DNA of 64,000 bases, from contig JBEKCB010000013.1 of the NCBI GenBank assembly GCA_050015075.1, positions 1-64,000 of the forward strand, in the 5' to 3' direction. The stretch comes from Candidatus Brocadiia bacterium. GTDB taxonomy: Bacteria > Planctomycetota > Brocadiia > CAIUPP01. How positions within the stretch are numbered: the stretch's first letter is position 1; each line of letters starts with the position of its first letter. Shown here in pieces: positions 2,944-20,931 of the stretch. The translations under genes and the position numbers were made by a program. The notes under the pieces were generated by a model. The model saw nothing but the letters and a program-made list of their open reading frames with translations. It was not told where the DNA came from and made no database searches.

Positions 2944-3376
2944 AGCACAGGCTCCTTGCTGGACGCAAGAAAACGGTCTTACCGAGGGTGTTTTCCTGCC
3001 GTCCGGGTCGCGGACGACGTCCGACCCTGGAGCCTGCTGCGTGACATGCTGCGGAATTTCCGTCGGTTGCGCCGGCGCTAGGGTGCGGCCAGCGGCGCAA
3101 CTCCTTTTATCCTATCACGTATATGCAGCGTTCGCAACAAGCTCATGGGCCAGGCGGCCGACACCCCATTTTGCGAATCGGGCCGACAGGCCCCGCAACC
3201 TACGTTAATGTAACAGTTTAGCCGAGAGAATGTTGTCATAAATCTGCGCAGGCCGGCCGCATATGCAGATAATGCTATTCGAGGGCCCCGCTCCCGCCGG
3301 TGCGATTGCGTTGCTCGCGGCGGCGCCGTCCGGCGCTGCTGCGTATGCCATTGCGCGCGCACTGCGAGCCCGCCGC

Positions 3377-3406
3377 TTGACCCTGTTGCGGGGCGGGTGA
3401 TACTAT
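3377..3406 (+). promoter_or_regulatory. sigma70-type promoter of selD
   Basis: TTGACC-N18-TACTAT with an extended -10 TG. This places the likely start codon at ATG 3431 (RBS GAGGGG at 3415-3420) rather than 3410. Confidence 0.6.
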
Positions 3407-3430
3407 CGAATGCCGAGGGGCGATCGCCGA

Positions 3431-5038
3431 ATGCCGATGGATGAGAATCGAATGGCCCTGAAAGATTCCAAGCGCGCGCGGGTGATGGCGCGGTCGAAGA
3501 AGCTCGGACACTGCATCTGCGACCCGCGAAAGGCCTGCCCCTGCAACCTGCTGATTGAAAAGGACGTCTGCCTTTGCGCCGGCGAGCGGCTGCCGGCGGA
3601 ACGGCGCGGGACTGCCGCGCCGAACGCGGCGCTGACGAAGCTGGTCAAGAACGCCGGCTGCGCCTCGAAAATTCCCGCCGCGGAACTCGCCAAAATCCTG
3701 GCACGGCTGCCGGCGGTCAGCGATCCGCGCCTGCTCGTCGGGCTCGGCACCGCCGACGACGCGGGCGTCTTCCAGGTCAGCCCGGATCTCTGCCTGGTGC
3801 AGACGGTGGATGTCTTCGCTCCGTGCGTGGACGATCCGTACCTCTTCGGCCAGATCGCGGCGGCGAATTCGCTGAGCGACGTGTACGCGATGGGCGGCGC
3901 GCCGCTGACGGCGCTCTCGATCGTCGGCTGGCCGATCCACACGCTGAGCGACGAGTGGCTCGTCCGCATGCTCGAAGGCGGCATGGACAAGCTGCGCGAG
4001 GCGGGCGTCATCCTCGTCGGCGGGCACAGCATCAACGACGAGGAGATCAAGTTCGGGTTCGCGGTGACCGGCACCATCCGGCCGGACGCCATCGTGGCGA
4101 ACTCCGGCGCGCGGCCGGGCGACGCGATGATCCTCACCAAGCCGGTCGGCACGGGCATCATTTCCTTCGCCGCGCAGATCGGGCGCGCCTCCGCCGAAGC
4201 GCTGCGCGCCGCCGGCGAGAGCATGGCCGCGCTCAACCGCGGCGCCGCGCAGGTCATGTGCCGCGCCGGCGCGCATGCGGGGACCGATGTCACCGGCTTC
4301 GGCCTGCTCGGCCATCTCTGGCAGGTCGCGCGCGAGAGCGGCGTGACGGCCGAACTCTGGTGGGACGCGGTCCAGGCGCTGCCGGGAGCCCTCGAATGCG
4401 CCCGGCAGGGCATCGTCTCCGGCGCGGCCGAGCGCAACCGCGAGTTCGCCGGCCCGGCGGTGACCGTCGCCGCCGGCGTGCCGGAATACGCAATGGACCT
4501 GCTCTACGACGCGCAGACTTCCGGCGGGCTGCTGATGTTCGTGCCGGAGCAGGCCGCCGGGCGGACCGTCGCCGAACTGCGCGCCGAAGGCTGTTCTTCC
4601 GCGGCCGTCGTCGGCCGCATTCTGGGGAAATCAAAAGGAGGGATCATCGTGGCGAAAAAACGCGACTCCGCACCCCGCACTCCGCCGCCCGACGCGGCTC
4701 GCGGCGCTGAGCCTGTCGAAGGACACGCCGCAGCCGAAAAGTGCTGCTCGACGGAATCAGCGCCTGCCGGCTCCGCCGGCTCGCCGCAGGAGGCGTTCCA
4801 GGATTTCATGGGAAAGGCCTTCGCGCCCGGCGCGCTCGACGCGGTGCAGAAGGAGATCATGACCATCGCGCTCTCGGTCGCCGTGCAGTGCGAGCCATGC
4901 CTGAAGATCCACCTGGAGAAGGCGCGCAGCATGGGCATCAGCCCCGACGAAATCCGCGAAGCCGCCTGGATGGGCATCGTGTTCGGCGGCTGCAAGGCGA
5001 TGATGTTCTGGAAGGAGAAGGGGCCGAAGGACGGATGA
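3431..5038 (+). CDS. selD: Selenide, water dikinase SelD with an N-terminal Cys-rich extension and a C-terminal CMD/AhpD-like domain
   Basis: SelD motifs LTKLVKNAGCASK (Cys form), DDAGV, VQTVD, FGQIAAANSLSDVYAMGG, GGHS, TDVTGFGLLGH and DAQTSGGLL. N-terminal HCICDPRKACPC..CLC. C-terminal GALDAVQKEIMTIALSVAVQCEPCLKIH. Confidence 0.95.
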   Translation: MPMDENRMALKDSKRARVMARSKKLGHCICDPRKACPCNLLIEKDVCLCAGERLPAERRGTAAPNAALTKLVKNAGCASKIPAAELAKILARLPAVSDPRLLVGLGTADDAGVFQVSPDLCLVQTVDVFAPCVDDPYLFGQIAAANSLSDVYAMGGAPLTALSIVGWPIHTLSDEWLVRMLEGGMDKLREAGVILVGGHSINDEEIKFGFAVTGTIRPDAIVANSGARPGDAMILTKPVGTGIISFAAQIGRASAEALRAAGESMAALNRGAAQVMCRAGAHAGTDVTGFGLLGHLWQVARESGVTAELWWDAVQALPGALECARQGIVSGAAERNREFAGPAVTVAAGVPEYAMDLLYDAQTSGGLLMFVPEQAAGRTVAELRAEGCSSAAVVGRILGKSKGGIIVAKKRDSAPRTPPPDAARGAEPVEGHAAAEKCCSTESAPAGSAGSPQEAFQDFMGKAFAPGALDAVQKEIMTIALSVAVQCEPCLKIHLEKARSMGISPDEIREAAWMGIVFGGCKAMMFWKEKGPKDG

Positions 5039-5095
5039 CGGGCGATGGCTGAGTGCTGATCGTTGACCGGCAACCGCCGGAGAAAGGAGCGGAAC

Positions 5096-5875
5096 ATGGC
5101 CCTCGGAAAAAATCACGTGCTGGTCATCGTCGCCATCGCGGGCATTATGGCGCTCACACTGGCCGGGGCTGGCCTGTTCAGCGGGAAGCAGGGGCCCGGC
5201 TATCTCCGGATCAACGTCTCAGACAAGAGCGCCGCCTACCTTGAATTTGAAGGCGCGGCCCTGCGCGCCGCGGCGAGCATGGAGGGACTGAAGACCGCGG
5301 AGCCGCTGCCGCTGCGTGCGCTGAATTTCCGGGCGGCGCAGTCCAGGGAGTTCACACTCCCGATTCCGGCCGATCAGCTTCCCGCAGGCGTCAGCGCCGT
5401 CAAGGGGATCTTCACGCGGACGGGGAGCAATGTCTCGGGCCAGATGGGAATCTGCCGGACGGACGCGCAGAAAGTCGTCTGGCAATGCGACGCAGGGATC
5501 TTGTCGGGGACCGGCGATCATGCGGAGGCGGCGCCGGCCATCCAGTTGCCAAGCCTGGAGACGCTTGCGCTGGTTGTCACGGGCGCGCCCTCGAATGGGA
5601 AACTGGGCATCGGTGTGCGGCTCGCGGCCGGCGACAACCCGGTGACCGGCGTGCTCAAGGATGGAAAGCCCGTGCCGGTCCAGGTCAGCGTGACGGACGC
5701 CGCCGGCAAAGAGGTGGCCGCGCGGAAAGGGCCGTTGACTGATTTCGGGTTCAGTTGAGGCGGCCCCTGCTGCTCCGTCGGAGTGGCGAAAGGCACGTAC
5801 ACGGTTTCCGCGACTCTCGACGCGGGGCCGTTCGGGTCCGCCGTGAAAGGCCAGGCGAAGGTCGTCGTGCCGTAG
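5096..5875 (+). CDS. Putative exported selenoprotein, paralogue 1 (Sec at TGA 5756-5758; U-G-G-P-C-C), 259 aa
   Basis: AAGGAG RBS and an N-terminal hydrophobic segment. The in-frame TGA is followed by 38 codons (GGPCCSVGVAKGTYTVSATLDAGPFGSAVKGQAKVVVP-TAG) that are conserved in the three downstream paralogues. SECIS-like hairpin at 5769-5787. Confidence 0.88.
5769..5787 (+). promoter_or_regulatory. Bacterial SECIS-like hairpin (paralogue 1)
   Basis: GCTGCTCC-GTC-GGAGTGGC: 8-bp stem with two G-U wobbles, starting 11 nt after the UGA. Confidence 0.8.
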
Positions 5876-5889
5876 CCGCCCGCTGGCTC

Positions 5890-5937
5890 GTAGTGTGCCC
5901 GCCAGGGCATACGAAGCAGCGCCTGACGGCGCCACTA
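5890..5937. repeat. GTAG-type REP-like element (second copy at 34283-34330)
   Basis: GTAGTGTGCCCGCCAGGGCATACGAAGCAGCGCCTGACGGCGCCACTA is near-identical to 34283-34330. Both copies sit just after stop codons. Confidence 0.75.
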
Positions 5938-5970
5938 TAAGCTGCCCGTGAGATTCCGCGGCCCGCTCCA

Positions 5971-6141
5971 CTAGATACGTATCGCACCTAGTCGAGTGCC
6001 GGGTCTGGCGGTCGCCTTTCGTGAGCCGGTTGCGCTGCGCCGGATGAGGGACTAGATACGTATCGTATCTAGCGGCGGCTGAAGCAAGCGAGCGGTTGCA
6101 GGATCACCCGCGGCGCAACGCTAGTTACGTATCGTATCTAG
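5971..6141. repeat. Three 21-bp palindromes, consensus CTAGATACG-TAT-CGTATCTAG
   Basis: Copies at 5971-5991, 6052-6072 and 6121-6141, separated by unrelated 60- and 48-bp gaps. Confidence 0.85.
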
Positions 6142-6206
6142 TGGCAGGCTGACGGATGAGGGGGCGCGCTTCGCGGGGCGGGCGCGGCGCATTCTGAAGT
6201 TACTCC

Positions 6207-6235
6207 TTGACAGACGCGACTTTGTGCCATACGCT
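6207..6235 (+). promoter_or_regulatory. sigma70-type promoter of paralogue 2
   Basis: TTGACA-N17-TACGCT. Confidence 0.6.
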
Positions 6236-6278
6236 TACGCTTGTGAGCCGAACAGGGCATTTGGCGAAGGGTGCCCGC

Positions 6279-7091
6279 ATGTCTCTATGCGGCCGCAGGG
6301 CGCGGGCCGTCGCGATGGCGGGCGCCATGGCGCTGGCGTGGCTGTGGGCCGGCACCAGCTCTGCGCAGACCTCGCAGAAGCCGGCCTTCGCGCGGCTCGC
6401 CGTGTCGGAGAATAGCGTCGTTTACATTCAGATCGAAGGCGGCGAACTCCGCGCGGCGATGAGCGCCGAGGGCTTGCAGACCGCCGCGCCGGTCAGGATG
6501 ACCGCGGAGTCCGCCTACGTAATCGCGTCCCCCGAATTCACGCTGCCCATTCCGGCCGAGCGACTGCCCGCCGGCGTCACGGCGATCAAAGCAACCCTGA
6601 CGCTGATGCAGATTCCGCCATCCACATTGCGGTCCGAGTGGCCGCCCCGTATTAGCGGCAGGTTCAGGATCTTCCGGACCGATGACCGGAAAGTGGAATG
6701 GCAATACGCGTCGTCCGGCGAGGTGCTGACAGGGGCGAACGCGGAGGAAGCGCCGTCCATCATGCTGCCCAACCTGGACAAAGTGAACGCCCGCCTGGCG
6801 GCCGCAGTGAGTGGAGGAACGCTGAGAGTGAACCTGGGGGTCAACGCCGGCGGCGCGCTCCTGGCCGGCGTGCGCAAGGCCGGCCACATGGTCCAGGTGA
6901 AGATGGTCGTGACGGACGCCTCCGGCGCCGTAATCGCCTCGAAAGTCGGGACGCTGTCCGACTTCGGGTTCAGTTGAGGCGGCCCGTGCTACTCCGTTGG
7001 AGTAGCCAAAGGGACTTACACCTGCACCGCGACGATGGATGTCGGGACCGGTTCGCCGCTGAAGGCAACGGCGACGGCTGCGGCTCCGTAA
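6279..7091 (+). CDS. Putative exported selenoprotein, paralogue 2 (Sec at TGA 6975-6977; U-G-G-P-C-Y), 270 aa
   Basis: Signal peptide ending ...LAWLWAGTSSA. After the TGA the frame continues GGPCYSVGVAKGTYTCTATMDVGTGSPLKATATAAAP-TAA. Hairpin GCTACTCC-GTT-GGAGTAGC at 6988-7006. Confidence 0.88.
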
Positions 7092-7185
7092 CGAGAGATT
7101 GCGCGGGTCCGGCGCCTGCGCTTGGGCGGCAGCGGCGTCATAAGTACGAGCCTGTCGCGCGAGGTGCGGAAGAGGAGGCGAGGCT

Positions 7186-7968
7186 ATGTTGCGATCTTGC
7201 GGCAAGAGGCTGATCGTCGCAGTGGCGGGCGTTGCGGCGCTGATGTGGGTCGGGGCCGGCTGCACCTCCGCGCAGGTCTCGCAGGGGCCGGCGTTCGCCC
7301 GGCTCGCCCTGTCGGAGAAGAGCGCCGTCTGCATCCGGATTCAAGGCGGCGAAGTCCGCGCGGCGATGAGCGCCGAGGGCTTGCAGACCGCCGAGCCGGT
7401 CAAAACGCACACCGAATTCACGCTGCCGATTCCGGCCGATCAACTGCCCGCCGGCGTCACGGCGATCAAAGCGAACCTGGCGCTGATGCAGATTCAGACG
7501 GCCGCGTCGGCCGCGCTGGCGCCCTACATTAACGGCACGTTCAGGATCTTCCGGGCGGATGACCAGAAGGCGGAATGGCAATTTGTGTCGGCCGGCGGCG
7601 GCCTGGCCGGGGCGAACGCGGAGAAAGCTCCATCCATCAAGCTGCCTGACCCGGACAAGTTGGACGCCAGCCTTTCGGCCACGGTCACTGGAGAAAAGCT
7701 GGCCGTCGGCCTTCGGGTCACTGCCGGCGGCGCGACCTTGACCGACGTGCGCAAGGACGGGCACCTGGCGGTGGTGAAGATGGTCGTGGCGGACGCCTCC
7801 GGCGTCGAGATAGCCTCAAAAGTCGGCACGCTGGCCGATTTCGGGTTCAGTTGAGGCGGGCCCTGCTACTCCGTGGGAGTAGCTAAAGGGACTTACACCT
7901 GCACCGCCACGCTGGATGTCGGGGCCGGTTCGCCGCTGAAGGCAACGGCGACGGCCGTCGTCCCCTAG
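7186..7968 (+). CDS. Putative lipo-selenoprotein, paralogue 3 (Sec at TGA 7852-7854), 260 aa
   Basis: GAGGAGG RBS and lipobox-like VGAGC. After the TGA the frame continues GGPCYSVGVAKGTYTCTATLDVGAGSPLKATATAVVP-TAG. Hairpin GCTACTCC-GTG-GGAGTAGC at 7865-7883. Confidence 0.88.
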
Positions 7969-8059
7969 CGAGGGATTCTTCGGTCCGGGCTTGTGTTTCG
8001 GCGGCGGCGGCGCTATAAACAAGGACGTGTCGCGCGAGGCGCGAAAGAGGAGGTGGGTT

Positions 8060-8827
8060 ATGTTGAGGGTTTGCAGCAGGGGGCTGGCCGTCGCGGCGTG
8101 CGCCGCGGCGCTGGCTTTGATCGGGGCCGGCTGCGCGGGAGTGCAGACCGCGCAGGCGCCGGCGTTTGCCCGGATCCCCCTGTCGGAGAACTGCGCCGTC
8201 AGCATTCAGATTCAAGGCGGCGAAGTCCGCGCGGCGATGAGCGACCAGGGAGTGCAGGCCGCCGCGCCGGTCAAGGCGGGCTCCGAATTCGCGCTGCCCG
8301 TTCCGGCCGATCAACTTCCCGCCGGCGTCACGGCAATCACCGCGAGCCTGTTGCTGACGCAGTATCAGTCGGGCGAAAACGCCGCGGTTGTCGGCCAGCT
8401 CACGGTCTTCCGGACCGATGACCAGAAGGCGGAATGGAAGTACGTGTCACAGCTCAGCGTCCCGGCCAGGGTGAACTGGGATCACGCGCAGTGCATCAAG
8501 TTGCCCGATCCGGCTGATGTGAAGGCCAGCCTCGAAGCCACGCCCGCCACAGGAAAACTTTCCATCGGCCTCAGGCTCACCCTCTATGGCGCCGCGATGG
8601 CCGACGTTCGCAAGAACGGCAAGCCGGTCCAGGTGAAGATGGTCGTGGCGGACGCCTCCGGAGCCGAGATCGCTTCAAAAGTCGGGACGCTGGCCGACTT
8701 CGGGTTCAGTTGAAACGGCCCCTGCTACTCCGTGAGAGTAGCTAAAGGAACTTATACATGCACGGCCACGGTGGAAGTCGGCGCCGGTTCCCCGCTCAAG
8801 GCGGAAAAGACGGTCACTGTGCCGTAA
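8060..8827 (+). CDS. Putative lipo-selenoprotein, paralogue 4 (Sec at TGA 8711-8713; U-N-G-P-C), 255 aa
   Basis: GAGGAGG RBS and lipobox-like IGAGC. After the TGA the frame continues NGPCYSVRVAKGTYTCTATVEVGAGSPLKAEKTVTVP-TAA. Hairpin GCTACTC-CGTGA-GAGTAGC at 8724-8742. Own promoter TTGTGT-N17-TATAAA at 7991-8019. Confidence 0.88.
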
Positions 8828-8853
8828 TCGCGCGAGACGGTTTCGGACATTTC

Positions 8854-8890
8854 AAGGGCGCTGGCTGATTCGGCCGGCGCCCTTTTGTTT
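8854..8890 (+). terminator. Intrinsic terminator after paralogue 4
   Basis: AAGGGCGCTGGCTG-ATT-CGGCCGGCGCCCTT followed by TTGTTT. It lies just after the extended stop codon (TAA 8827), not after the TGA. Confidence 0.75.
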
Positions 8891-8900
8891 CTGGCGTGTA

Positions 8901-8991
8901 TCGTACTCGTCCTCGTCCTCGGCCGCACGAAACGGCCGTTCGAGGACGAGGACGAGGACGAGGACGAAAACGGCGACGAGCACGAGGACGA
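8901..8991. repeat. (CTCGTC)n/(GACGAG)n palindromic repeat (second copy at 12080-12166)
   Basis: Inverted hexamer arrays that produce spurious LVLVLV/EDEDED ORFs. Confidence 0.8.
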
Positions 8992-8998
8992 CTGGCGC

Positions 8999-9096
8999 GG
9001 GAGCGGATGGGTCCTGGTGGATCTTGCTCCGCTTCAAACGGAGTGCGGGGCCCTGATAAGGTCCTAGGTGGGTTCGATTCCCACACGCTCCCGCCA
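8999..9096 (+). tRNA. selC: tRNA-Sec (anticodon UCA)
   Basis: 8-position acceptor GGGAGCGG/ACGCTCCC followed by GCCA. 6-bp D stem with a 4-nt TGGT loop. Anticodon arm CTCCG-CTTCAAA-CGGAG with TCA at 9034-9036. Long variable arm and T arm GTGGG-TTCGATT-CCCAC. Confidence 0.97.
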
Positions 9097-9159
9097 ACAT
9101 TAATGACGATGGACGATAGACGAGGGACGATGGACGATGGAAAAAACCGGACAGCGCCA

Positions 9160-9828
9160 ATGGGAGAAACTGCCTTGAGCCGCGACAAGATCCTCGAAGA
9201 ACTCGCCCGAACGGTCGTGGCGATGGACGAAGCCGGGGCCGTGGCCGCCGCGCACAAGGCGCTCGCGGGCGGCGTGGACCCGTACGTGGCGATCAACGAC
9301 GGGCTCGCCGTCGGCATGCGCGAGGTCGGGCGGCTCTACGACACGGGCGAATACTTCGTCCCGGAAATCCTCATCTGCTCCGACGCGATGAACGCCGGGA
9401 TCGCCGTCCTCAAGCCGCACATCCGCCGCGCGCCGGGCCGCGAGCCGGTCACCGTCATCCTCGGCGTCATCGAGGGCGACATCCACGACATCGGCAAGAA
9501 CATCGTCAAGATCATGCTCGACGCCTCCGGCTTCCAGGTCGTGGATCTCGGCCGCGACGTGAGCGCCGAGCGCTTCGTCCAGGCCGCGCGCGAGGCCAAG
9601 CGCGGGCTCGTCGGCCTCTCCACGCTCATGTCCACCACCATGGAGAACATGGGCAAGGTCGTCAGCGGCCTCTCCGACGCCGGGCTGCGGAAGGAGTTCC
9701 GCGTGATGCTCGGCGGCGCGCCCTGCTCGGAGGCCTTCGCGCGCGAGATCGGCGCGGACGGGTTCGGGCGGAACGCCAGGGAGGCGGTCGAACTCGCGGA
9801 ACGGTTGTCCGGGAAATTGGGTGATTAG
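9160..9828 (+). CDS. Methyltransferase-cognate corrinoid (B12-binding) protein, MtaC/MtbC-like
   Basis: Cap domain GLAVGMREVGRLYDTGEYFVPE and B12 motif EGDIHDIGKNIV..DLGRDV..GLSTLM..MLGGAP. The start is ATG 9160 or TTG 9175; the longer ORF-track start overlaps the tRNA. Confidence 0.93.
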   Translation: MGETALSRDKILEELARTVVAMDEAGAVAAAHKALAGGVDPYVAINDGLAVGMREVGRLYDTGEYFVPEILICSDAMNAGIAVLKPHIRRAPGREPVTVILGVIEGDIHDIGKNIVKIMLDASGFQVVDLGRDVSAERFVQAAREAKRGLVGLSTLMSTTMENMGKVVSGLSDAGLRKEFRVMLGGAPCSEAFAREIGADGFGRNAREAVELAERLSGKLGD

Positions 9829-9928
9829 GAGATTGGGAGATTAGGTGATTAGGAAATTAGGAGCTTGGGTGATTGAGTTTGGCGATTTTCGCCACCCAAT
9901 TTCCCAATTTCCTAATCTCCCAATCTCC
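9811..9928. repeat. Inverted octamer array (TTGGGAGA/TCTCCCAA type; similar element at 54441-54551)
   Basis: Tandem ~8-bp units followed by their reverse complements. Confidence 0.75.
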
Positions 9929-9953
9929 AGTTGTGAATCAGCAAGGAACTGAA

Positions 9954-10988
9954 ATGCCCAGTGACAAGATGTCGCCCGCCGAACGCTTCACCGCCTTCCT
10001 CAGCGGCAAGCCGATGGACCGCTTCCTGTGCGTGCCGCTGATCCTCAACCATGCCGCGCGCGTCCTCGGCGTGAAGGTCGGCCGGTACAACCGCGACGGC
10101 CGGCTCATGGGCGAATGCCATGCGGCGGCGTACCGGCGCTACGGGCACGACATGATCGCGATCTTCTCGGATACCGCGATCGTCGCCGAGGCGATGGGCA
10201 CGGAACTTTACTATCCGGAGGACGACGTCCCGCGCGTCGAGCGGCCCGCGCTCGCCGACCCGAAGGACCGCAGCCGGCTCGTCACCGCCGACTGGGCCGA
10301 CCGGGGCAAGCTGCCGGTTTTCTACGAGGCGATCCGCGTCGCGGCCGAGGCGCTCCACGGCGAAGCGCCCATCGGCTGCTGCGTCCCGGCGCCCTTCACC
10401 ACCGCCGCCTGCCTGCGTGGCACCGACCAGCTCGCGCGCGACCTCTACCGGAACCCGGCGCTCGCGCATGAACTGCTCGCCCTCGCGCTCGAAGCGGCGA
10501 AGCAGTTCGCCGGCCGCATCATGGATTCGGGCGGCGTGCCGGTGGTCGTGGACCCGGTCGCCACCGGCAGCGTCCTCGGCCGGCGGCAGTTCGAGGAGTT
10601 CGCGCTGCCGTACCTGAAGCCGCTTCACGCGCACGTCGCCGCGCGCGGGTTCCCGGTGGTCCTGCACATCTGCGGACAGACCGCGCGCACGCTCGATCCC
10701 ATGGCCGAATCCGGCGCGGCGCTGCTGAGCCTGGACGACATCTCGATGGCCGAGGCGCGCGACCGCGTCGGCGGCCGCGTGGCGCTCATGGGCAACGTCC
10801 GGCCCGCGCAGACGCTCCTGAAGGGCAAGCCGGAAGACGTCCTCCGCGAGGTCCGCGACCTGTGCGACATCGGCCGCAAATGCCAGGCCGGTTTCATCCT
10901 CGGCAGCGGCTGCGAAGTCCCCATCGCCAGCCCGCCGGAGAACATAGACGCCATGATGGCCGGCGTCAGAGAATACGGGAGAATGTAG
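9954..10988 (+). CDS. Uroporphyrinogen decarboxylase-fold methyltransferase (MtaA/CmuA family)
   Basis: Zn-binding HICG motif, C-terminal GFILGSGCEVPIASPPENI, GNVRP and APFTTA. Adjacent to the corrinoid protein. Confidence 0.88.
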   Translation: MPSDKMSPAERFTAFLSGKPMDRFLCVPLILNHAARVLGVKVGRYNRDGRLMGECHAAAYRRYGHDMIAIFSDTAIVAEAMGTELYYPEDDVPRVERPALADPKDRSRLVTADWADRGKLPVFYEAIRVAAEALHGEAPIGCCVPAPFTTAACLRGTDQLARDLYRNPALAHELLALALEAAKQFAGRIMDSGGVPVVVDPVATGSVLGRRQFEEFALPYLKPLHAHVAARGFPVVLHICGQTARTLDPMAESGAALLSLDDISMAEARDRVGGRVALMGNVRPAQTLLKGKPEDVLREVRDLCDIGRKCQAGFILGSGCEVPIASPPENIDAMMAGVREYGRM

Positions 10989-11040
10989 CAAGGCGCCGGA
11001 AATACGTCCCATATTTCCCATCAATCACATAGGCCCCATT

Positions 11041-12075
11041 ATGTCCTTCACAGCGCGCAGCCGGCTTACCGGCGCCCTTCGCCGCGAACCGGTGGACCGC
11101 CCGCCGGTCATCTGCCCCGGCGGCATGATGACCATGGCCACCGCATCCGCCATGCGCCGAGTCGGCCGCGCCTGGCCGGCGGCGCACTCCGACGCGCGCG
11201 CGATGGCCGAGATCGTCCTCGCCACGCGCGACGAGACCGGGCTCGAATGCCTCGCCGTCCCGTTCTGCATGACCGTCGAGGCCGAAGCGCTCGGCTGCAC
11301 CGTGGACATGGGCAGCGCAACCGTGCTCCCGCACGTCGCGGTCGAATGCATCCGCGATCCGGCGGAGGTCGGCGGCCTGCCGGAGTTCAACCCGGAGCGC
11401 TCCGGCCGCGCGCCGGTGGTGCTCGAGGCGATCGAGCGGCTGAAGAGCGCCTGCGCCGGCGCCCCGGTCCTCGGCGGCGTGCTCGGCCCGGTCACGCTCG
11501 CGGCGATGATCATGGATGCCGGCCTCTTCCTGCGCCTGACGCGGCGCGACCCGGCCGCCGCCGAACAATTCATCGCCGCCCTGGAGCCGGTCGTGGTCCG
11601 GTTCGCGCTCGCGCAGCACGCCGCCGGAGCCGACTGCGTCACCGTGGCCGAGCCTTCGGCCACCGGCGAAGTGCTCGGCGGAAAGCACTTCGAGAAGCTC
11701 GCCGCGCCCGCGCTCGTCCGCGTCCTCCGCGCCTTGCGCGACGGCGGGGCATCGCCTATACTGCATATATGCGGCGACCTGCGGCCGATCCTGCCGCAGG
11801 TGGCGCTCATCGCGCGCAAGCTCGACGCGCCGCTGGCGCTCAGCGTGGACGCGATGGTCAGCGGGCGCGACTTGCAGGCGGCGCTGCCGGAGGTCGTGCG
11901 CGTCGGGAACGTGGACGCGCTCCTGCTGCAGCGCGAAGATGTCGCAACGGTTGAGCGCGTGGCGCGCGCGGCGGCGCTCGATTTCGACATCCTCTCGCCC
12001 GCCTGCGGCCTGGTCCCCACGACGCCGGCGGAAAACCTGCGGGCGATGGTCCGCGCGGCGCAGCGGCAATTATAA
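11041..12075 (+). CDS. Methylcobamide methyltransferase (MtaA/MtbA family)
   Basis: DRPPVICPGGMM, VPFCMTVEAEALGC, LHICG and SPACGL. Confidence 0.9.
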   Translation: MSFTARSRLTGALRREPVDRPPVICPGGMMTMATASAMRRVGRAWPAAHSDARAMAEIVLATRDETGLECLAVPFCMTVEAEALGCTVDMGSATVLPHVAVECIRDPAEVGGLPEFNPERSGRAPVVLEAIERLKSACAGAPVLGGVLGPVTLAAMIMDAGLFLRLTRRDPAAAEQFIAALEPVVVRFALAQHAAGADCVTVAEPSATGEVLGGKHFEKLAAPALVRVLRALRDGGASPILHICGDLRPILPQVALIARKLDAPLALSVDAMVSGRDLQAALPEVVRVGNVDALLLQREDVATVERVARAAALDFDILSPACGLVPTTPAENLRAMVRAAQRQL

Positions 12076-12212
12076 GCGCATCGTACTCGTCCTCGTCGTC
12101 GTCCTCGTCCTCGGCCGTTCAGAACGGCGATTCGAGGACGAGGACGACGACGAGGACGATTACGATAGGTTGCGATTAACGCGCGTCGTATCCTCTGATG
12201 AGAGCCTTGTGA

Positions 12213-13115
12213 ATGAAGCCAAGACCTGAAATCGGAATATGGGGTCGGCGCTTCCCGACGCAGATCGTCTCGCTGATCGCCTTCAACGGTTACTTCTGGC
12301 GCGGGCCGGGAAAGTGGTTCTGCCTGCCGGTCCTGAACTGCTACGCCTGCCCGGTCGGAACGGTCGCCTGCCCGATCGGTAGCCTGACGGCGTTCGCGCT
12401 GGCGCGGAGGATCCCGTTTTACGCCCTGGGACTCCTCGGTGTCATCGGAGTGGCCGTCGGCCGCGCGTTCTGCGGATGGGCCTGCCCGTTCGGGCTTTTC
12501 CAGGACCTGCTGTACCGCATCCGCTCGTTCAAGTTCCGGCTGCCGCGCGCGGCGAACGCGCTGAAGTACGCGCTGCTGGTCGTGCTGGCGCTGGGGCTGC
12601 CGCTGATTATGGGCGGCGGAAAGCGGACCGGCTCCGAGGACCGGATCACCGGCGAGAAGACCGGCGCGCTGGACTATTGCTCGCTGGTCTGCCCGGCCGG
12701 GACGCTCGAAGGCGGCGTGCCGGTCCTGGCGGCGAGCGCCTCGGTGCGCGCGCAAGCCTCGTGGCGAACCTGGAGCAAGATCGGTCTCGCGGTGGGCATT
12801 CTCGGCCTGACGGTCGTCGCGCGCAGGAGCTTCTGCCGCGCGCTCTGTCCGCTCGGCGCGCTGATGGCGCTCACCTCGCGCGTCTCGATGATGCAGTTGC
12901 ACACCGAGGACAAGCTCTGCACGCGCTGCATGCGCTGCGTCAAAGTCTGTCCCACGTACGCGCGGCATCTGCCGTTCAAGCAGTTCAAGACCGAGGCCAC
13001 CGTCGAATGCGTGATGTGCCTCGACTGCGTCCGCAACTGCCCGGAGAAAGGCGCGCTCTCCGCGCGGATGGGCGGGAAATCTTTCTCCGTCAGCGAAGGG
13101 AGGACCCGTGAGTAG
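12213..13115 (+). CDS. Membrane 4Fe-4S binding protein (NapH/MauN-like polyferredoxin)
   Basis: LNCYACP, GRAFCGWACPFG, FCRALCPLG, two CxxCxxCxxxCP motifs and several TM helices. Confidence 0.9.
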   Translation: MKPRPEIGIWGRRFPTQIVSLIAFNGYFWRGPGKWFCLPVLNCYACPVGTVACPIGSLTAFALARRIPFYALGLLGVIGVAVGRAFCGWACPFGLFQDLLYRIRSFKFRLPRAANALKYALLVVLALGLPLIMGGGKRTGSEDRITGEKTGALDYCSLVCPAGTLEGGVPVLAASASVRAQASWRTWSKIGLAVGILGLTVVARRSFCRALCPLGALMALTSRVSMMQLHTEDKLCTRCMRCVKVCPTYARHLPFKQFKTEATVECVMCLDCVRNCPEKGALSARMGGKSFSVSEGRTRE

Positions 13116-13254
13116 AAGAGACTGGATCGTCGCCGCGGCGCTGACGCTGCTGTTCGCGGCCCTGCTGACGTACGGCCTGAGCCAGGGCGACGCGGGCTAC
13201 GTGCGCCAGAACGCCTCAGAGAATTTCTGCTTCTCCTGAGCGCTCGGCGAATGA
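13108..13254 (+). CDS. Small membrane protein with C-x-x-U (CD1871A-like CXXC family; Sec at TGA 13237-13239), 48 aa
   Basis: GGAGG RBS and a GTG start overlapping the upstream stop. Reads MSRRDWIVAAALTLLFAALLTYGLSQGDAGYVRQNASENFCFS-U-ALGE. Perfect hairpin GACCGCGC-GTG-GCGCGGTC at 13253-13271. Absent from the ORF track. Confidence 0.75.
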
Positions 13255-13386
13255 CCGCGCGTGGCGCGGTCGAACGACGGTAAGTTTTGCCGCAAAGAGG
13301 CGCAAGAAGCGCAAGGATCATTGAAATTCCGTGCCTCTTGCGCCTCTTTGCGGCTAAGCGGTTCTTCTGTGCCGGAGGCAAGCTGA

Positions 13387-14790
13387 ATGTCGGACGATTC
13401 CGCGCTCCTGCGCCAGTTGCCGCGCGTGGACGACTTGCTCGTCCATCCGCGAATGGCCGCGGTTCCGGCGGCGCATGCGCTGGCTTTGAAGGCCGCGCGC
13501 GAGGCGGTGGCCGAGACGCGCGCGCGGCTTCTGGCGGGCGAAAGCGCGGTGGACGCGAGCGCCGACGCCGTCGCGGCGCGCGCCGCGGAGATCCTCGAAC
13601 GCGCCGCCGCGCGCAGCCTGCGCCGCGCCGTCAACGCCACCGGCGTCCTGCTCCACACCAACCTCGGCCGCGCGCCGCTCTCGGACGCCGCGCAGCGGGC
13701 GCTCGCCGACGTCGCCGGCGGGTTCTGCAACGTGCAGGCGGACCTCGGCTCCGGCCGCCGCTCCGAGCGCGAGGACCACGTGCAGGGCCTCTTCCAGGCG
13801 CTCACCGGCGCGGAGGCGGCGCTCGTCGTCAACAACAACGCCGCCGCGACCGTGCTGGCGCTCAACACGCTCGCCGCCGGGCGCGAGGTGATCGTCTCGC
13901 GCGGCGAGATGGTCGAGATCGGCGGCGCGTTCCGCATCCCGGAAATCCTCAAGCTCGCCGGCTGCCGGCTCGTCGAGGTCGGCTGCACCAACCGCACTCA
14001 CCTGCGCGATTACGAGCGCGCCCTCACGCCCGAGACCGCGCTGATCCTCTCGGTCCACCAGAGCAACTATCGCATCGTCGGGTTCGCCGAGCAGACGCCC
14101 GTGCGCGAGCTGGCCGAGCTGGCGCACGCCCGCGGGATTCCCTGCGCGCACGACCTCGGCAGCGGCGCGCTGCTCGACCTGCGCGCCTACGGCCTGCCGC
14201 ACGAGCCGACCGCGCCGGAGAGCCTGGCCGCCGGCGCGGACGTGACGCTCTTCAGCGGCGACAAGCTGCTCGGCGGACCGCAGTGCGGCATCCTCCTCGG
14301 CAAAAAGGCGCCGCTGGCGGCGATGCACAAGAACCCGTTCTACCGCGCGTTCCGCGTCGGCAAGCTGACCCTGGCCGCGCTCGAGGCGACGCTGCGTCTC
14401 TTCCTCGAGCCGGAGACGCTGCTCGAGAAGCACCGGCTTATGTCTCTGCTGACGGCCCCGCTCGAAGGAATCCGCCGCCGCGCCGAGTCGCTCGCGCAGG
14501 AAATCGCCGCCTCGTGCGCCGGCTGGCTGGCGGCCGAGGCGCAGGCGGGCGAATCGGAAATCGGCGGCGGCTCGCTCGCCGGATATCCGATCCCGACCGT
14601 CGTGGTCCGCCTGAGCCCGAAGGGCCTCTCACCCGACGACTTGGCCGCGCGCCTGCGCCAGTCCGACCCGCCGATCTTCACCCGCGTCCACGAAGGCTGC
14701 GTGCTCCTCGACGTGCGGACCATGCTTCCCGGCGAAGAGCGGCTCATCGTCGAGGCGCTGAAGCGGATCGGGGCTAAGGTCCAGCAATGA
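13387..14790 (+). CDS. selA: L-seryl-tRNA(Sec) selenium transferase
   Basis: LRQLPRVD, NATGVLLHTNLGRAPL, VVNNNAAA, SRGEMVEIGGAFRIP, EVGCTNRT, DLGSG and the PLP lysine motif FSGDKLLGGPQ. Confidence 0.98.
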   Translation: MSDDSALLRQLPRVDDLLVHPRMAAVPAAHALALKAAREAVAETRARLLAGESAVDASADAVAARAAEILERAAARSLRRAVNATGVLLHTNLGRAPLSDAAQRALADVAGGFCNVQADLGSGRRSEREDHVQGLFQALTGAEAALVVNNNAAATVLALNTLAAGREVIVSRGEMVEIGGAFRIPEILKLAGCRLVEVGCTNRTHLRDYERALTPETALILSVHQSNYRIVGFAEQTPVRELAELAHARGIPCAHDLGSGALLDLRAYGLPHEPTAPESLAAGADVTLFSGDKLLGGPQCGILLGKKAPLAAMHKNPFYRAFRVGKLTLAALEATLRLFLEPETLLEKHRLMSLLTAPLEGIRRRAESLAQEIAASCAGWLAAEAQAGESEIGGGSLAGYPIPTVVVRLSPKGLSPDDLAARLRQSDPPIFTRVHEGCVLLDVRTMLPGEERLIVEALKRIGAKVQQ

Positions 14791-15200
14791 GGACACTTGT
14801 AAGACTTTCCGCAGTCCTGCCGATCGTCTTATTCCTTTGTGGATGCATGACGCCGGATATTGTCGTAGTTGACGATGAAGGCGTTCCGGTGGCAGGTGCT
14901 TCGATAACGTACCACTCTCTTTCAATCAGCGGCCCAACAACGACAGATAGGCGAGGAGGCGCTTCGATTCCCTGGGCCCTGCAAGAGATCAAGTGGATTT
15001 CGGTGGCAAAACAAGGCTATGCCTTCGTATGGGCTTCGGGGATGAACAAGGTTGACGTGAATCAACCGAAGTATTTTAACCTGCCGGTCCTGAACGTTGA
15101 GGTGAATCAGCCGGAGCCTATCAAGCGACCGCCTACCGCGTCGCCCTTCGTTGACGTAAATCAACCGAAGCCTATCAAGATAGTCTTGAAGAAATATTGA
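14787..15200 (+). CDS. Hypothetical lipoprotein with three V(D/E)VNQP repeats
   Basis: Lipobox LFLCGC and a VVDDEGVPVAGASI beta-sandwich-like start. Visibly lower GC than the flanks. ATGA overlap with selA. Confidence 0.65.
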   Translation: MRTLVRLSAVLPIVLFLCGCMTPDIVVVDDEGVPVAGASITYHSLSISGPTTTDRRGGASIPWALQEIKWISVAKQGYAFVWASGMNKVDVNQPKYFNLPVLNVEVNQPEPIKRPPTASPFVDVNQPKPIKIVLKKY

Positions 15201-15234
15201 GCTACGAACCACTTTGGAAATTGGAAATTAGAAC

Positions 15235-17145
15235 TTGGATATTCCTCCGCGCCACATCATCTTCGGCACCGCCGGGCACGTGGACCATGGGAAGTCCATG
15301 CTGGTCCTGGCGCTGACCGGGACCGATCCGGACCGGCTGGCCGAGGAGAAGGCGCGCGAGATGACGATTGATCTCGGCTTCGCTTTCCTCCCGCTGCCCG
15401 GGATCGCCGGCGCCGTCGCGATCGTGGACGTGCCCGGGCACGAGATGTTCCTGCGCAACATGGTGGCGGGCGCGACCGGGATTGACGCGGCGATGCTCGT
15501 GATCGCGTGCGACGAAGGGGTGATGCCGCAGACCGTCGAACACCTCGACGTCTTGCGCTGCCTGCGCATCTCCGAAGGCGTCATCGTCCTGACCAAGGCC
15601 GACAAATCGCCGGACCTGATCCCGGCGGTGACCGAGGAGGCGCGCGAGCTGGTGCGCGGGACGTTCCTGGAGAAGGCGCGGGCCATCCCGGTCTCGTCGG
15701 TGACCGGCGAAGGGCTGCCTGCGCTCAAGGAAGAGCTGGCGCGGATCGCCGCGCGCGTGCAGGCGCGCTCGGCCGAGGGGATCTTCCGCCTGCCGATTGA
15801 CCGCGTCTTCACGCTCAAGGGCGTCGGCACCGTCGTCACCGGCACGGTGATCTCCGGCTCGCTGAAGACCGGCGAGACGGTCGCCTGCCTGCCGCAGAAT
15901 TCGGCGCTGCGCGTGCGCGGGCTCCAGGTGCACAACGAGGCGGCGGCGGAGGTCTTCGCCGGCCAGCGCGCGGCGATCAACTTGGCGGACGCGTCGAAGG
16001 AGGACCTGGAGCGCGGCAATGTCCTCGCCGCGCCGGGCATGCTGGCGCCGACGCTGATGGCCGACGTGCGGCTGGAGCTTTCGCTCCGGTCGCCGAAGCC
16101 GCTGGCGCAGCGCGCGCGGGTGCGCATCCATCACGGGACCAGCGAGCTGATGGCGCGCGTGGTGCTGCTCGACCGGGAGTCGCTGCCGGCCGGCGAGTCG
16201 GCGCTGGTGCAGTTGCGTTTCGAGTCGCCGCTGGTCGCAGCCGCCGGCGACCCGTTCGTCGTCCGCTCGTATTCGCCGATGTTCGTCATCGGCGGCGGCA
16301 GCGTCGTGGACCCGCATCCGCCCAAGCGCCGGAAAGCCGCCGGCGCGGAGGACGTGGCGAAGCGCGAGAGTTCACCGGTCGCCGATGTGATCCTTGACGC
16401 GCTTGACCGCGCCGGCGCGCGCGGGGTGGAGTTCGCCCGGCTCCGGATCCATTGCGGGATCGGCGACGACGCGCTCCGGTCCGCGCTGGCCGGGATGAAA
16501 ACGGACGCGCTCGCCGCCGACGGCCGCCGCGATGTCTGGTTCAGCGCCGGCGCGCTCCGCGAGATGCAGGCGGCGATCACCGCGCGGCTGGCGCGCCTGC
16601 ACGCCGAGGAGCCGCTGCGCCCGTTCGCCGCGCTCAACCAGGTCTCCGCCGGCGCCGCGCCCACGCCGGAGTCGCGCGAGTGCTTCCGCCTGGCGCTCGA
16701 CGGACTGCGCGACCGCGGCGAAGTGATCGCCGCCGGCGAGCGGCTGCGCCTGGCGACTCACCAGCCGCAGTGGGTCGGCCGCTACGCGGCGGTTCGCGAG
16801 AAGCTGCTGGCGCAGTCCCGCGAGAGCGGCCTGGCCGTGCCGGCCGTCGCCGAATGGGCGCCACGAGTCGGGCTGTCCGAGCCGGACTGCCGGCGCTCGC
16901 TCGACGCCCTGGCCGAGGCGGGCGAATTAGTCCTGCTCGCCCCCGGCATTTATGTCCACCCCGAGTGTTTCAGCGGCGCGCGCGACCGGGTGAAGGAATT
17001 CCTGGCGAAGAACGGCCGAATGAATATCGCGCAGGCGCGCGATCTGCTCAGCGCCTCGCGCAAGTACCTGCTCCCGTTCCTCGAAGAACTGGACCGGCAG
17101 CGCGTCACCGCGCGGCAGGGCGACTTCCGGGTTCCCGCTTCTTGA
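15235..17145 (+). CDS. selB: Selenocysteine-specific translation elongation factor
   Basis: GTAGHVDHGKS, EEKAREMTIDLGFA, DVPGHE, NMVAGATG and TKAD. C-terminal winged helix SRKYLLPFLEELD..T.RQGD.R. Confidence 0.98.
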   Translation: MDIPPRHIIFGTAGHVDHGKSMLVLALTGTDPDRLAEEKAREMTIDLGFAFLPLPGIAGAVAIVDVPGHEMFLRNMVAGATGIDAAMLVIACDEGVMPQTVEHLDVLRCLRISEGVIVLTKADKSPDLIPAVTEEARELVRGTFLEKARAIPVSSVTGEGLPALKEELARIAARVQARSAEGIFRLPIDRVFTLKGVGTVVTGTVISGSLKTGETVACLPQNSALRVRGLQVHNEAAAEVFAGQRAAINLADASKEDLERGNVLAAPGMLAPTLMADVRLELSLRSPKPLAQRARVRIHHGTSELMARVVLLDRESLPAGESALVQLRFESPLVAAAGDPFVVRSYSPMFVIGGGSVVDPHPPKRRKAAGAEDVAKRESSPVADVILDALDRAGARGVEFARLRIHCGIGDDALRSALAGMKTDALAADGRRDVWFSAGALREMQAAITARLARLHAEEPLRPFAALNQVSAGAAPTPESRECFRLALDGLRDRGEVIAAGERLRLATHQPQWVGRYAAVREKLLAQSRESGLAVPAVAEWAPRVGLSEPDCRRSLDALAEAGELVLLAPGIYVHPECFSGARDRVKEFLAKNGRMNIAQARDLLSASRKYLLPFLEELDRQRVTARQGDFRVPAS

Positions 17146-17160: not shown

Positions 17161-18090
17161 ATGGCGACCTTCGGCGCGTTCTCAGCGCCCGGCCGGTGGT
17201 TCCGCGGCAACTGCCACACGCACACGTTGCTGAGCGACGGCAGAGCGGGCGCCGCGCAGACCGCGCAGGCGTACCGGCGCGAGGGATACGATTTCGTGGT
17301 GCTGACCGATCACGGGCGCGCGCAGGAAACTCTCTCGGGCCTGGGCGACGACCGCTTCCTGGTCATCAACGGCATCGAGCTGCATCCGCCGGCGCCCGGA
17401 CGCCGGCGCGACGAGCCGTATCACATCGTCGGCATTGGCGTGGAGCGTTCGCCGGCGCCCGAGTGGGTGAAAAAGGCCACGGCGGCGTCGGTCATCCGCT
17501 GGATCGAGCGCGAAGGCGGCGTGCCGGTGTACGCCCATCCGTACTGGTGCGGGCATGACCTCGACCTGATGCGCCAGGGCAAGCGCGCCTTCGGCGTCGA
17601 GGTGTTCAACTCCGTGTGCGAGGCGATGGACGGCCTGGGCGATTCGAGCGTGCACTTCGACCAGGCGCTGTCGGCGGGCATCCGCTGGACGGCGTTCGCG
17701 GTGGACGACACGCACCGGCTCGCACGCGATGCCTTCGGCGGATGGATCATGGTCAAGGCGCGGGAGCTGACGCGGCGCGCCATCCTCGGCGCGATCCGCA
17801 AGGGGCATTTTTACGCCACGCAGGGGCCGGTGATCCGGTCGCTGCGCGTGAGCGGCGGGACCGTCCACTTGACCTGCTCGCCCGCGCGGAAGATCGTCTG
17901 GCACGCGGAAGGGCCTCACGGCGAGGTCCTCATCGCCAAGCGCGGGACGCGCAGCCGAGGCCGGTTCGCGCTCCAGCGCCTCGTCGGCCGCTCCAGATAC
18001 CTGCGCCTGGAAATCGTGGACGCCGCCGGCCGCAAGGCCTGGTGCAATCCCATCTGGCGCGCCGCCCGCGGCGGACGCTGGAGCGACTGA
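17161..18090 (+). CDS. PHP-domain metallohydrolase (CehA/McbA-like)
   Basis: GNCHTHTLLSDG, LTDH, AHPYW, EVFN and DDTH. Confidence 0.85.
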   Translation: MATFGAFSAPGRWFRGNCHTHTLLSDGRAGAAQTAQAYRREGYDFVVLTDHGRAQETLSGLGDDRFLVINGIELHPPAPGRRRDEPYHIVGIGVERSPAPEWVKKATAASVIRWIEREGGVPVYAHPYWCGHDLDLMRQGKRAFGVEVFNSVCEAMDGLGDSSVHFDQALSAGIRWTAFAVDDTHRLARDAFGGWIMVKARELTRRAILGAIRKGHFYATQGPVIRSLRVSGGTVHLTCSPARKIVWHAEGPHGEVLIAKRGTRSRGRFALQRLVGRSRYLRLEIVDAAGRKAWCNPIWRAARGGRWSD

Positions 18091-18306: not shown

Positions 18307-19020
18307 ATGGCGGCGCCGAAACTCAGCGTGGTGATCCCGGCGTATAACGAGGAAGAGTGCATCGGCGACTGCGTCCGCGAGGTCTGCTCGGTGATGGACC
18401 GGCTGGGACAGGCGTACGAGGTCGTCGTCGTGGATGACGGCAGCACCGACTCGACGCCCGAGCGGCTGCGCGCGCTCAGGCCGCAGTTCCCGGCGCTGCG
18501 CGTGGTGCGCATCCTGAAGAACTCCGGCGAGACGGCGGCCACCGACGCCGGCTTCCATGCCGCCCGCGGCGAGTTGATCGCCACGGTGGACGCCGACCTG
18601 CAGAACGATCCGGCGGACATCCCGAAAATGGTCGCGATGATGAACGACTGGGATGTCGTCTGCGGCGTGCGCACGAAGCGCGAGGACTCGTTCGTGCGGC
18701 GCGTCTCGTCGCGCGTGGCGAACTGGTCGCGCAACAAGCTCACGCGCGAGAGCATCACCGACGTCGGCTGCACGATGAAGGTCGTCCGCGCCTCCTACGC
18801 GAAAAAAGTGAAGCTCTTCACCGGCATGCACCGCTTCCTGCCGACGCTCCTGCGCATGGAAGGCGCGCGCGTGACGGAGATCCCCGTCAATCACCGGCCG
18901 CGCCTCAAGGGCCATTCCAAGTACGGCGTCTGGAACCGCGTGTTCCGCGGATTGTACGACCTGTTCGGCGTTCGGTGGATGCAATCACGCTGGCTGCGAT
19001 ACGAAAGCAGGGAGGAATGA
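18307..19020 (+). CDS. Glycosyltransferase family 2 (polyprenol-phosphate glycosyltransferase, ArnC/Dpm1-like)
   Basis: SVVIPAYNEE, VDDGSTD, DADLQNDP, HRFLP and SKYG. Upstream TTGACA-N18-TAAGAT at 18232-18261. Confidence 0.92.
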   Translation: MAAPKLSVVIPAYNEEECIGDCVREVCSVMDRLGQAYEVVVVDDGSTDSTPERLRALRPQFPALRVVRILKNSGETAATDAGFHAARGELIATVDADLQNDPADIPKMVAMMNDWDVVCGVRTKREDSFVRRVSSRVANWSRNKLTRESITDVGCTMKVVRASYAKKVKLFTGMHRFLPTLLRMEGARVTEIPVNHRPRLKGHSKYGVWNRVFRGLYDLFGVRWMQSRWLRYESREE

Positions 19021-19337
19021 GAGTGGACTGGGCAGCGATCTGGACCTGGCTTGGCCAGCAGTGGGGCTTGTGGAAGCTGATCGGCTACGCGGGCAATGCG
19101 GCGTTCGCCACGCGGTTCTTGATCCAATGGATCGCCTCCGAGCGCGCGGGGAAGAGCATCATCCCGGTGCAGTTCTGGTACATGAGCATCGTCGGCAGCG
19201 TCATCCTGGCGGTTTACGCCTTCCACACGGGCGACCTCGTGGTCATCTTCGCCTTCGCCCCGAACAGCCTGGTCTATATCCGCAACCTTATGCTGCTGCA
19301 CAAAGAGAAAAAAGCCAAACAGGCCGGCGCGGCGTGA
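19017..19337 (+). CDS. Lipid-A-disaccharide synthase N-terminal domain (LAB_N) membrane protein
   Basis: F.TRFLIQWIASERAGKS..P..FWY.S..G and YIRNL. Confidence 0.9.
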   Translation: MRVDWAAIWTWLGQQWGLWKLIGYAGNAAFATRFLIQWIASERAGKSIIPVQFWYMSIVGSVILAVYAFHTGDLVVIFAFAPNSLVYIRNLMLLHKEKKAKQAGAA

Positions 19338-19421
19338 AGACGAACGTCTTTGCCACGGATTGCACGGATTAACGACAGAGAGCGTCAAAGGGTTCACTGT
19401 TGACTTCTACGGCATAAGACC

Positions 19422-20894: not shown

Positions 20895-20931
20895 GGAGGC
20901 GCGGAGCGGCGGAGTTCGGCGTCGCCCGGTT

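Follow-up and report, generated by a model that had tools for sequence, protein, structure and literature searches.

Known selenoproteins are mostly thioredoxin-like proteins or subunits of metal enzymes, and formate dehydrogenase (FDH) is the client that usually keeps the selenocysteine (Sec) trait (PMC13188914). Herein, we describe a locus in which the Sec genes selD, selC, selA and selB share one strand with four genes for exported proteins carrying in-frame UGA codons (U1 to U4), a corrinoid/methyltransferase block, and a membrane polyferredoxin paired with a small peptide ending in CxxU. The locus lies within a 64,000-nt stretch of DNA (the window) from the genome of a Candidatus Brocadiia lineage (G000, the host; completeness 93.6%). 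Window coordinates are used for the locus, and other contigs of the host are labelled C3, C6 and so on.

Described systems resemble different parts of this locus. According to Kountz and Balskus, the type 1 mlp clusters (type 1 MGCs) correspond to the M. voltae dimethylselenide system, several clusters occur with selABCD, co-occurrence with the Sec machinery is 87%, and selenide methyltransferase activity was shown for ClMlp2 (PMC10418091). Like these clusters and Methanococcus SdmABC (PMC10418091, PMC11097638), the window has a corrinoid protein and two UroD-family His-Cys-Cys methyltransferases, and no folate methyltransferase. The SAO and Tso operons (PMC13188914) also hold several hidden selenoprotein genes, some of them surface-exposed, in one conserved neighbourhood. 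The window differs in that the clients lie inside the sel operon and have a modelled immunoglobulin (Ig)-like fold, and the Sao and Tso family models gave no match among the scanned window proteins. Lastly, nDsbD is described as an Ig-fold redox hub (PMC3438397), and the U family resembles nDsbD/DsbD in its exported domain, predicted to be Ig-like, in a putative redox pair and in an adjacent membrane protein that may provide electrons.

The gene cluster is real and conserved, and its supply and decoding parts are of already known kinds. We consider it very probable that the locus is modular, not one pathway, and that its UGA codons are read as Sec. In the libraries and literature searched, we came upon no description of the client superfamily or of the apparent move of the Sec code towards envelope proteins.

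Probable Sec reading of the exported UGA proteins

The four exported proteins are paralogs encoded at 5096-8827, with 39-65% mutual identity. Each gene carries an in-frame TGA followed by a candidate Sec insertion sequence (SECIS):

5096..5875 (+): U1, exported selenoprotein candidate; TGA 5756, SECIS about 5768-5788
6279..7091 (+): U2, exported selenoprotein candidate; TGA 6975, SECIS about 6988-7006
7186..7968 (+): U3, exported selenoprotein candidate; TGA 7852, SECIS about 7865-7883
8060..8827 (+): U4, exported selenoprotein candidate; TGA 8711, SECIS about 8724-8742

The signal peptide of U2 was called by eye and falls below the hydropathy threshold. The motif at the four TGAs is FGFS-U-x3-C, and the spacing in the family is U-x3-C or U-x4-C. 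A fifth, unlinked copy with U-x4-C lies on contig C3 of the host (112606-113388, +), and the relative G001 has one too. In the copies the C-terminal end is conserved and the middle is variable.

Across 22 distinct contexts fitting the family pattern, near-identical strains among them, the codon was always TGA (22/22) and never TAA or TAG. In 21 of the 22, a hairpin with 7 or more pairs follows, its G-U loop lying 17-21 nt past the UGA. The bSECIS model (PMC13188914) places a G in the first two loop positions and the loop 16-37 nt past the UGA; the UGAs of U1-U4 and of the CxxU peptide (CFSU, listed below) conform to it. As a background, among open reading frames (ORFs) closed by TGA, TAG and TAA, a similar hairpin filter passed 14 of 1517, 10 of 648 and 2 of 484, respectively. 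In 14 copies, differences past the SECIS were distributed over codon positions 1, 2 and 3 as 459/401/891, and upstream as 605/318/711; the third-position bias is thus seen on both sides of the UGA. U1-U4 have Cys homologs at the UGA position, with coding conservation on both sides, and one array paralog in metagenome locus L041 has TGC in place of TGA and lacks the hairpin.

If the UGAs were ordinary stops, the proteins would end at FGFS, and this is where databases end 43 of 44 matches (2 of them the window's own). Such termination is highly improbable against the invariant TGA, the SECIS, the downstream coding bias and the Cys paralogs, and against the strands encoded after the UGA, which complete the modelled C-domain of U3. 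Judged from sequence, the Sec reading is strongly supported. The family comprises at least 265 clusters at 50% identity. Among the 150 best of 265 representatives, 125 have the motif as their C-terminal end and 13 are full length; of these 13, two carry Cys at both positions and the other 11 lack Cys at the Sec position. These counts rest on protein sequences, from which the identity of a stop codon is not readable. The distant members P0124, P0161 and P0171 are exported domains fused to a multi-helix membrane N-terminus and end at the motif.

A model of mature U3 (pLDDT 94.3, pTM 0.87) has two all-beta domains. Residues 123-228 generically match Ig/fibronectin type III (FnIII) sandwiches (best Z 9.4, root-mean-square deviation 2.0, 65 aligned), adhesins and receptor domains among them, and the U and C are predicted to sit in one loop of this Ig/FnIII-like C-domain. 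A single-sequence model of the Cys paralog reached a pLDDT of 36. We found no sequence relatives of the U C-domain in the PDB, and U1-U4 gave no match at E 0.01 in Pfam and NCBIfam (including Sao, Tso and OS_HP2), only weak, scattered ones. Membership of the U/FEYG proteins in OS_HP2 is unsupported (E 0.059 in 1/9 members, 0/5 genomes). No description of the U family was found in the literature, where supplements of selenoprotein-prediction papers could list it, and none of the 119 selenoprotein families in a table of PMC13188914 has a U-x3-C motif.

Envelope proteins as probable clients of the Sec code

Other Planctomycetota have, in their sel loci, exported proteins ending FEYG-U-GGxC. The C-domains of these proteins and of U1-U4 align (hhalign probability 97.1, E 5e-11), and the two groups have the SECIS stem in common. 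FEYG genes lie beside sel genes in seven of the nine sel loci fetched via mt1 (the first methyltransferase gene of the block), Fer4_5 or selA (L079-L082, L107, L109 and L111; not L110 or L112), and in five more, L113-L117, which were selected since the FEYG match and selA shared a contig. Among 400 sampled genomes, 25 carry a Ux3C/FEYG domain, 22 with TGA and 3 without. selA is present in 21 of the 22 and was detected in none of the 3. Cys forms are found in G110 and G255, where selA was not found; G146, one of the three without TGA, has a TGA molybdopterin enzyme, and its selA is probably unassembled. Adjacency to sel genes was seen for 9 of the 22 TGA genomes, the rest having the genes on different contigs or unfetched. 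The Sec and the second Cys are retained together across at least two divergent families and mostly lost together.

The sequence-only reading that preceded this analysis had seen no classical Sec client in the window and had proposed that the Sec machinery serves an extracytoplasmic pathway. The host genome is in line with the lack of classical clients and with an extracytoplasmic role. FdhA (C-H-A-P at the Sec site), HdrA, MvhD and NiFe hydrogenase are Cys forms without an in-frame stop in their main matches, nine peroxiredoxin-like matches likewise have none, and SelD is the Cys form. SECIS screens of the genome returned the five U-family genes, the CFSU peptide, three U-x-C proteins, a lipoprotein and an uncertain U-G-K protein. 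In total there are 12-13 selenoprotein candidates, each with an N-terminal hydrophobic segment (mostly called by eye); all look envelope-located. The screens missed two DUF6132-like genes, so this inventory is a lower bound. Screening by codon score, with no SECIS filter, returned mostly adjacent genes.

The candidates outside the locus are varied. Exported proteins with GY[ES]-U-x-C and a SECIS, without a family match, are encoded at C7:144745-146127(-), C35:35701-36864(-) and C54:1593-2465(+); the C35 protein has a signal peptide like that of U3, and the C7 protein a pilin-like N-terminus. A lipoprotein-like gene at C18:90096-90767(+) has an in-frame TGA (YVPS-U-MH) and a SECIS-like hairpin. 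The DUF6132-like genes, at C10:69917(-) and C17:23191(+), encode two-helix membrane peptides with C-x4-U-P and a hairpin with a GGUC loop. At C18:77877(+), a peroxiredoxin-like lipoprotein gene has a TGA followed by two codons and a 10-pair hairpin, a possible C-terminal U-G-K. The TGA inside a long frame at C8:147737(+) has no clear SECIS, and the aligned residue is not Cys-like; it may be a nonsense mutation or an error.

Fifteen genomes have a sel operon that includes a U-x3-C gene (G000-G002, G010, G015, G039, G046, G055, G085, G224, G237, G239, G240, G252 and G282); in none of them was a TGA molybdopterin enzyme found (0/15), several of these genomes being incomplete or without a visible FDH. 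In families f4 and f7, conversely, every selA-positive genome (14 of 14) has a TGA FDH, and none has the Ux3C/FEYG domain. Envelope proteins, not FDH, appear to keep the Sec code in these lineages.

Modules of the locus and their conservation

The remaining features of the locus and its edges are as follows:

3377..3406 (+): sigma-70-like promoter upstream of selD; 9/12 consensus, extended -10
3410..5038 (+; start may be 3431): SelD, Cys form; TIGR00476 363 bits, cut-off 125
8854..8884 (+): terminator-like hairpin closing the selD-UGA array; 14 pairs and a T-rich tail
8999..9096 (+): selC, tRNA-Sec (UCA); RF01852 60.9 bits, gathering 47
9130..9828 (+; start uncertain): methyltransferase cognate corrinoid protein, SdmA/MtbC-like; B12-binding and cap domains
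9954..10988 (+): mt1, UroD/MtaA-family methyltransferase, His-x-Cys...Cys; URO-D match
11041..12075 (+): mt2, UroD/MtaA-family methyltransferase, His-x-Cys...Cys; PRK06252 295 bits, cut-off 244
12213..13115 (+): NapH/MauN-like membrane polyferredoxin, Fer4_5 and 2[4Fe-4S] motifs
13108..13254 (+): 48-aa single-helix membrane peptide ending CFS-U-ALGE; TGA 13237, SECIS about 13252-13272
13387..14790 (+): selA; TIGR00474 533 bits, cut-off 268
14787..15200 (+): small lipoprotein-like gene, unmatched in both relatives' loci
15235..17145 (+): selB; TIGR00475 344 bits, cut-off 242
17161..18090 (+): CehA/McbA-type PHP metallohydrolase, adjoining selB in both relatives too

Profile scans, a tRNA search and an ORF check confirmed the gene list of the sequence-only reading, with every gene it named on the plus strand from 3410 to 17145. 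All four Sec components exceed their curated cut-offs, and selA, selD and selC are each single, no second copy having been found in the host genome (93.6% complete). That reading would have fallen had the neighbourhood been unique to this assembly, which it is not. Among 40 relatives of the host, U3 was matched in two, G001 and G002, both of the host's family, and in both the gene order is that of the window, selD-U(n)-selC-corrinoid-mt1-mt2-Fer4_5-CxxU-selA-selB; the proteins of G002 are 60-70% identical to the window's. In G003, of the same family and 92% complete, selA, the U protein and Fer4_5 were searched and none was seen. In a metagenome set of 17 loci, 2 of them copies of the window, synteny is also kept in L039-L042, and the core proteins of L034 are 91-97% identical to the window's. 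Between selD and selC there is one array copy in L039, L040 and L042, and there are six in L041.

The corrinoid-mt1-mt2 block varies independently of the array. It is largely deleted in L041 and L043 and, via a different junction, in L042, and these loci still hold selD, the array, selC, Fer4_5, the peptide and selA. Assembly error may lie behind these deletions, but the corrinoid remnant of L041 carries a nonsense codon as well, and L043, too short to show the flanks of the deletion, repeats the L041 junction. In other loci the methyltransferase, U-x3-C and Fer4_5/CxxU modules occur in different combinations. In addition, the corrinoid and both methyltransferase genes are frameshifted in L107 of G039 (11803-14480; decay or assembly error), and a DUF3034 protein sits between the methyltransferases and selD in L081 (9148-10062). 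Genes at L109:5645-7030 and L111:10004-12054, inside sel operons, presumably encode a 2-hydroxyacyl-CoA dehydratase subunit and its activase.

By sequence, mt1 is probably Mlp2/SdmBC-like and mt2 probably Mlp3-like. The His-Cys-Cys zinc site is present in both, mt2 having been aligned to MtaA (4ay7), and in a quick 38-row tree mt2 groups with one Acetoanaerobium noterae cluster enzyme (SH-aLRT 100). A corrinoid protein and two UroD-family methyltransferases in one cluster are the mark of a type 1 MGC. The block differs from those clusters in that the activase lies outside it, there are only two methyltransferases, it is joined to exported selenoprotein genes, and it is being lost in some relatives. 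No Ram/RACE activase was found in the cluster; the host has two elsewhere, on C6 and C20. Because of this, and because the Mlp clade numbers are not fixed, we treat the block as working like a type 1 MGC and do not file it as a canonical one. The comparison makes methyl-selenide salvage its likely role.

Orthologs of mt1 occur in 18 of 301 genomes of the phylum. Among 15 of 17 available mt1 neighbourhoods, sel genes occurred in 4 and an activase in 8, and orthologous clusters of six f4 loci and of A. noterae include the activase. In family f4 mt1 and selA go together (nine carriers with selA, two non-carriers without it), while family f7 has selA without mt1, and G078 has a methyltransferase cluster without detected selA.

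The CxxU peptide gene overlaps the Fer4_5 stop. Of 41 class genomes, 7 have Fer4_5 homologs (E 1e-30); every one lies near selA and adjoins a membrane peptide ending CxxU. Two further pairs, in L113 and L116, bring the loci outside the host family to six. The paired peptides look non-homologous to each other, and those close homologs of the Fer4_5 protein that are named belong to Armatimonadota. Under the positive-inside rule, the basic N-terminus ahead of the single helix suggests that CxxU faces outward. The peptide resembles the CD1871A family, a CXXC peptide beside a 4Fe-4S binding protein: both are short single helices with a CxxC/CxxU end beside a Fer4_5 gene. Here the second Cys is Sec, and the gene order is reversed relative to that family. 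The CD1871A model (NF040920; 38 positions, low sensitivity) did not match the CFSU peptide.

SelD has an N-terminal extension with six cysteines (CxC-x5-CPC-x8-CxC), present in 14/14 loci examined, and a C-terminal CMD/AhpD domain with CEPC; a relation of the extension to ferredoxin-thioredoxin reductase was rejected (4.3 bits). The hexamers of the promoter-like site at 3377 recur upstream of selD in L034, L039, L041 and L042 (three promoter-like sites were found, against 1.2 in shuffles), and a hairpin similar to that at 8854-8884 occurs in L034, L039, L041, L042, L051 and G002. Since the two bracket selD and the UGA array, they suggest at least two transcription units.

The lipoprotein-like gene at 14787..15200 is probably a passenger. 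A GAF-PAS histidine kinase gene lies divergently upstream of selD (433-2943, -), is kept in G001 and L039-L042, and could encode a regulator of the locus. Inverted repeats (GACGAG-type, REP-like) occupy the intergenic gaps at 8901-8991, 12081-12165, 9828-9928, 3322-3373 and 5882-5933. At 19000-21000, GC falls to 52% across a PMT_2 glycosyltransferase-like gene, compared with 66% for the window. In a phylum sample, selA exceeded its cut-off in 285 of 401 Planctomycetota genomes; the share quoted for bacteria, 21.5% (PMC10418091), is far below this.

Possible mechanism, alternatives and meaning

We tentatively suggest a DsbD-like periplasmic redox relay, at somewhat less than an even chance. The corrinoid protein and the two Zn-type methyltransferases would remove the methyl groups of methyl-selenides and hand the selenide on to SelD, the activase being encoded elsewhere, and this supply module would be dispensable. 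SelD, SelA, tRNA-Sec and SelB would perform decoding. The polyferredoxin would draw electrons from quinol or from donors in the cytoplasm, the CxxU peptide would offer them at the periplasmic face, and the Ig domains with U-x3-C would serve, in the manner of nDsbD, as selenenyl-sulfide carriers, with the variable N-domain selecting targets. The C-domain of U3 has, at the level of a generic match, the Ig-like fold of nDsbD. The membrane partner would be a NapH-like Fe-S protein with the CxxU peptide as opposed to DsbD, and the U family departs from DsbD also in being multicopy and variable; no specific sequence match to it was found.

Several observations weigh against this scheme. The site is U-x3-C or U-x4-C, not the C-x5-C of nDsbD, and nDsbD was not among the 50 structural matches listed. 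The 11 full-length members without Cys at the Sec position indicate that the fold needs no redox pair. U-x3-C genes occur without Fer4_5/CxxU in L079-L082, L114, L115 and L117, and L110 has Fer4_5/CxxU without a U-x3-C gene in 15.5 kb; the two are therefore not obligately paired. Of the 22 genomes with a TGA FEYG domain, 6 also carry TGA molybdopterin enzymes. No activase gene was found in the cluster, and G078 has the methyltransferase genes without a detected selA. Finally, kinship among the genomes and their incompleteness make the counts overstate independence.

The same genes could instead capture selenium or soft metals. The U-x3-C proteins and CxxU/Fer4_5 would bind or reduce selenium at the envelope and feed SelD, making the locus one of uptake and supply. 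By prediction, selD and the array are transcribed as one unit, and 12 loci outside the family also have U-x3-C genes next to sel genes. SelD bears additional domains, one Cys-rich and one CMD, and its N-terminal motif was seen in all 14 loci examined. The adjoining module is of a selenium-salvage type (PMC10418091). Nevertheless, Cys forms persist in G110 and G255, where selA was not found, a further copy lies away from the operon on C3, general scans found no transporter gene in the locus, and the array expands even as the salvage module disappears. We hold capture to be rather unlikely. No evidence was found for the metal(loid) handling offered by the sequence-only reading. A similarly doubtful proposal takes the U proteins for adhesin- or sensor-like proteins of the surface or envelope that vary in sequence, hold a structural or protective Se-S bond and share no pathway with their neighbours; they would cluster with sel genes because code and client travel together. 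A copy number of 1-6 with a conserved end and variable middle, the adhesin and receptor matches, the Cys-free members, the Armatimonadota homologs of Fer4_5 and the absence of selA, U protein and Fer4_5 from G003 all fit such co-transfer. It does not fit the joint retention, and mostly joint loss, of Sec and second Cys across at least two divergent families, a behaviour typical of redox pairs, or the recurrence of the CxxU/Fer4_5 pairing with non-homologous-looking peptides.

The sequence-only reading had favoured one integrated, possibly undescribed and self-contained system. In such a pathway the exported proteins would supply the corrinoid methyltransferases with their substrate, a methyl-selenium or methyl-metalloid compound, and U-x3-C genes do lie directly 5' of the corrinoid gene in L078-L082 and L107, and in the window with selC between. 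We find this improbable: two different deletions remove the block and leave the array intact, f4 genomes have block and activase and no U-x3-C gene, and L109, L111 and L113-L117 have a U-x3-C gene without the block. The methyltransferase block resembles a published cluster type, and the modules occur in varying combinations. Nor is the locus self-contained, with both activases and 7-8 of the host's selenoprotein candidates on other contigs.

With the redox relay as its mechanism, a wider reading, unlikely as a whole, is that several anaerobic Planctomycetota lineages have turned the Sec code wholly to the envelope. An Ig-fold U-x3-C superfamily with a Fer4_5/CxxU conduit would form a selenium-based counterpart of DsbD inside the sel operon; it would keep the Sec trait without a Sec-FDH and diversify through tandem duplication. 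If true, selenoproteins would gain a new structural class in the Ig-fold Sec redox domain, and the U-x3-C C-domain is small and soluble enough for direct testing. Databases cut these candidate envelope selenoprotein families at the UGA, across at least 265 clusters in the U family. The locus also provides natural deletion variants of a likely methyl-selenide salvage module.

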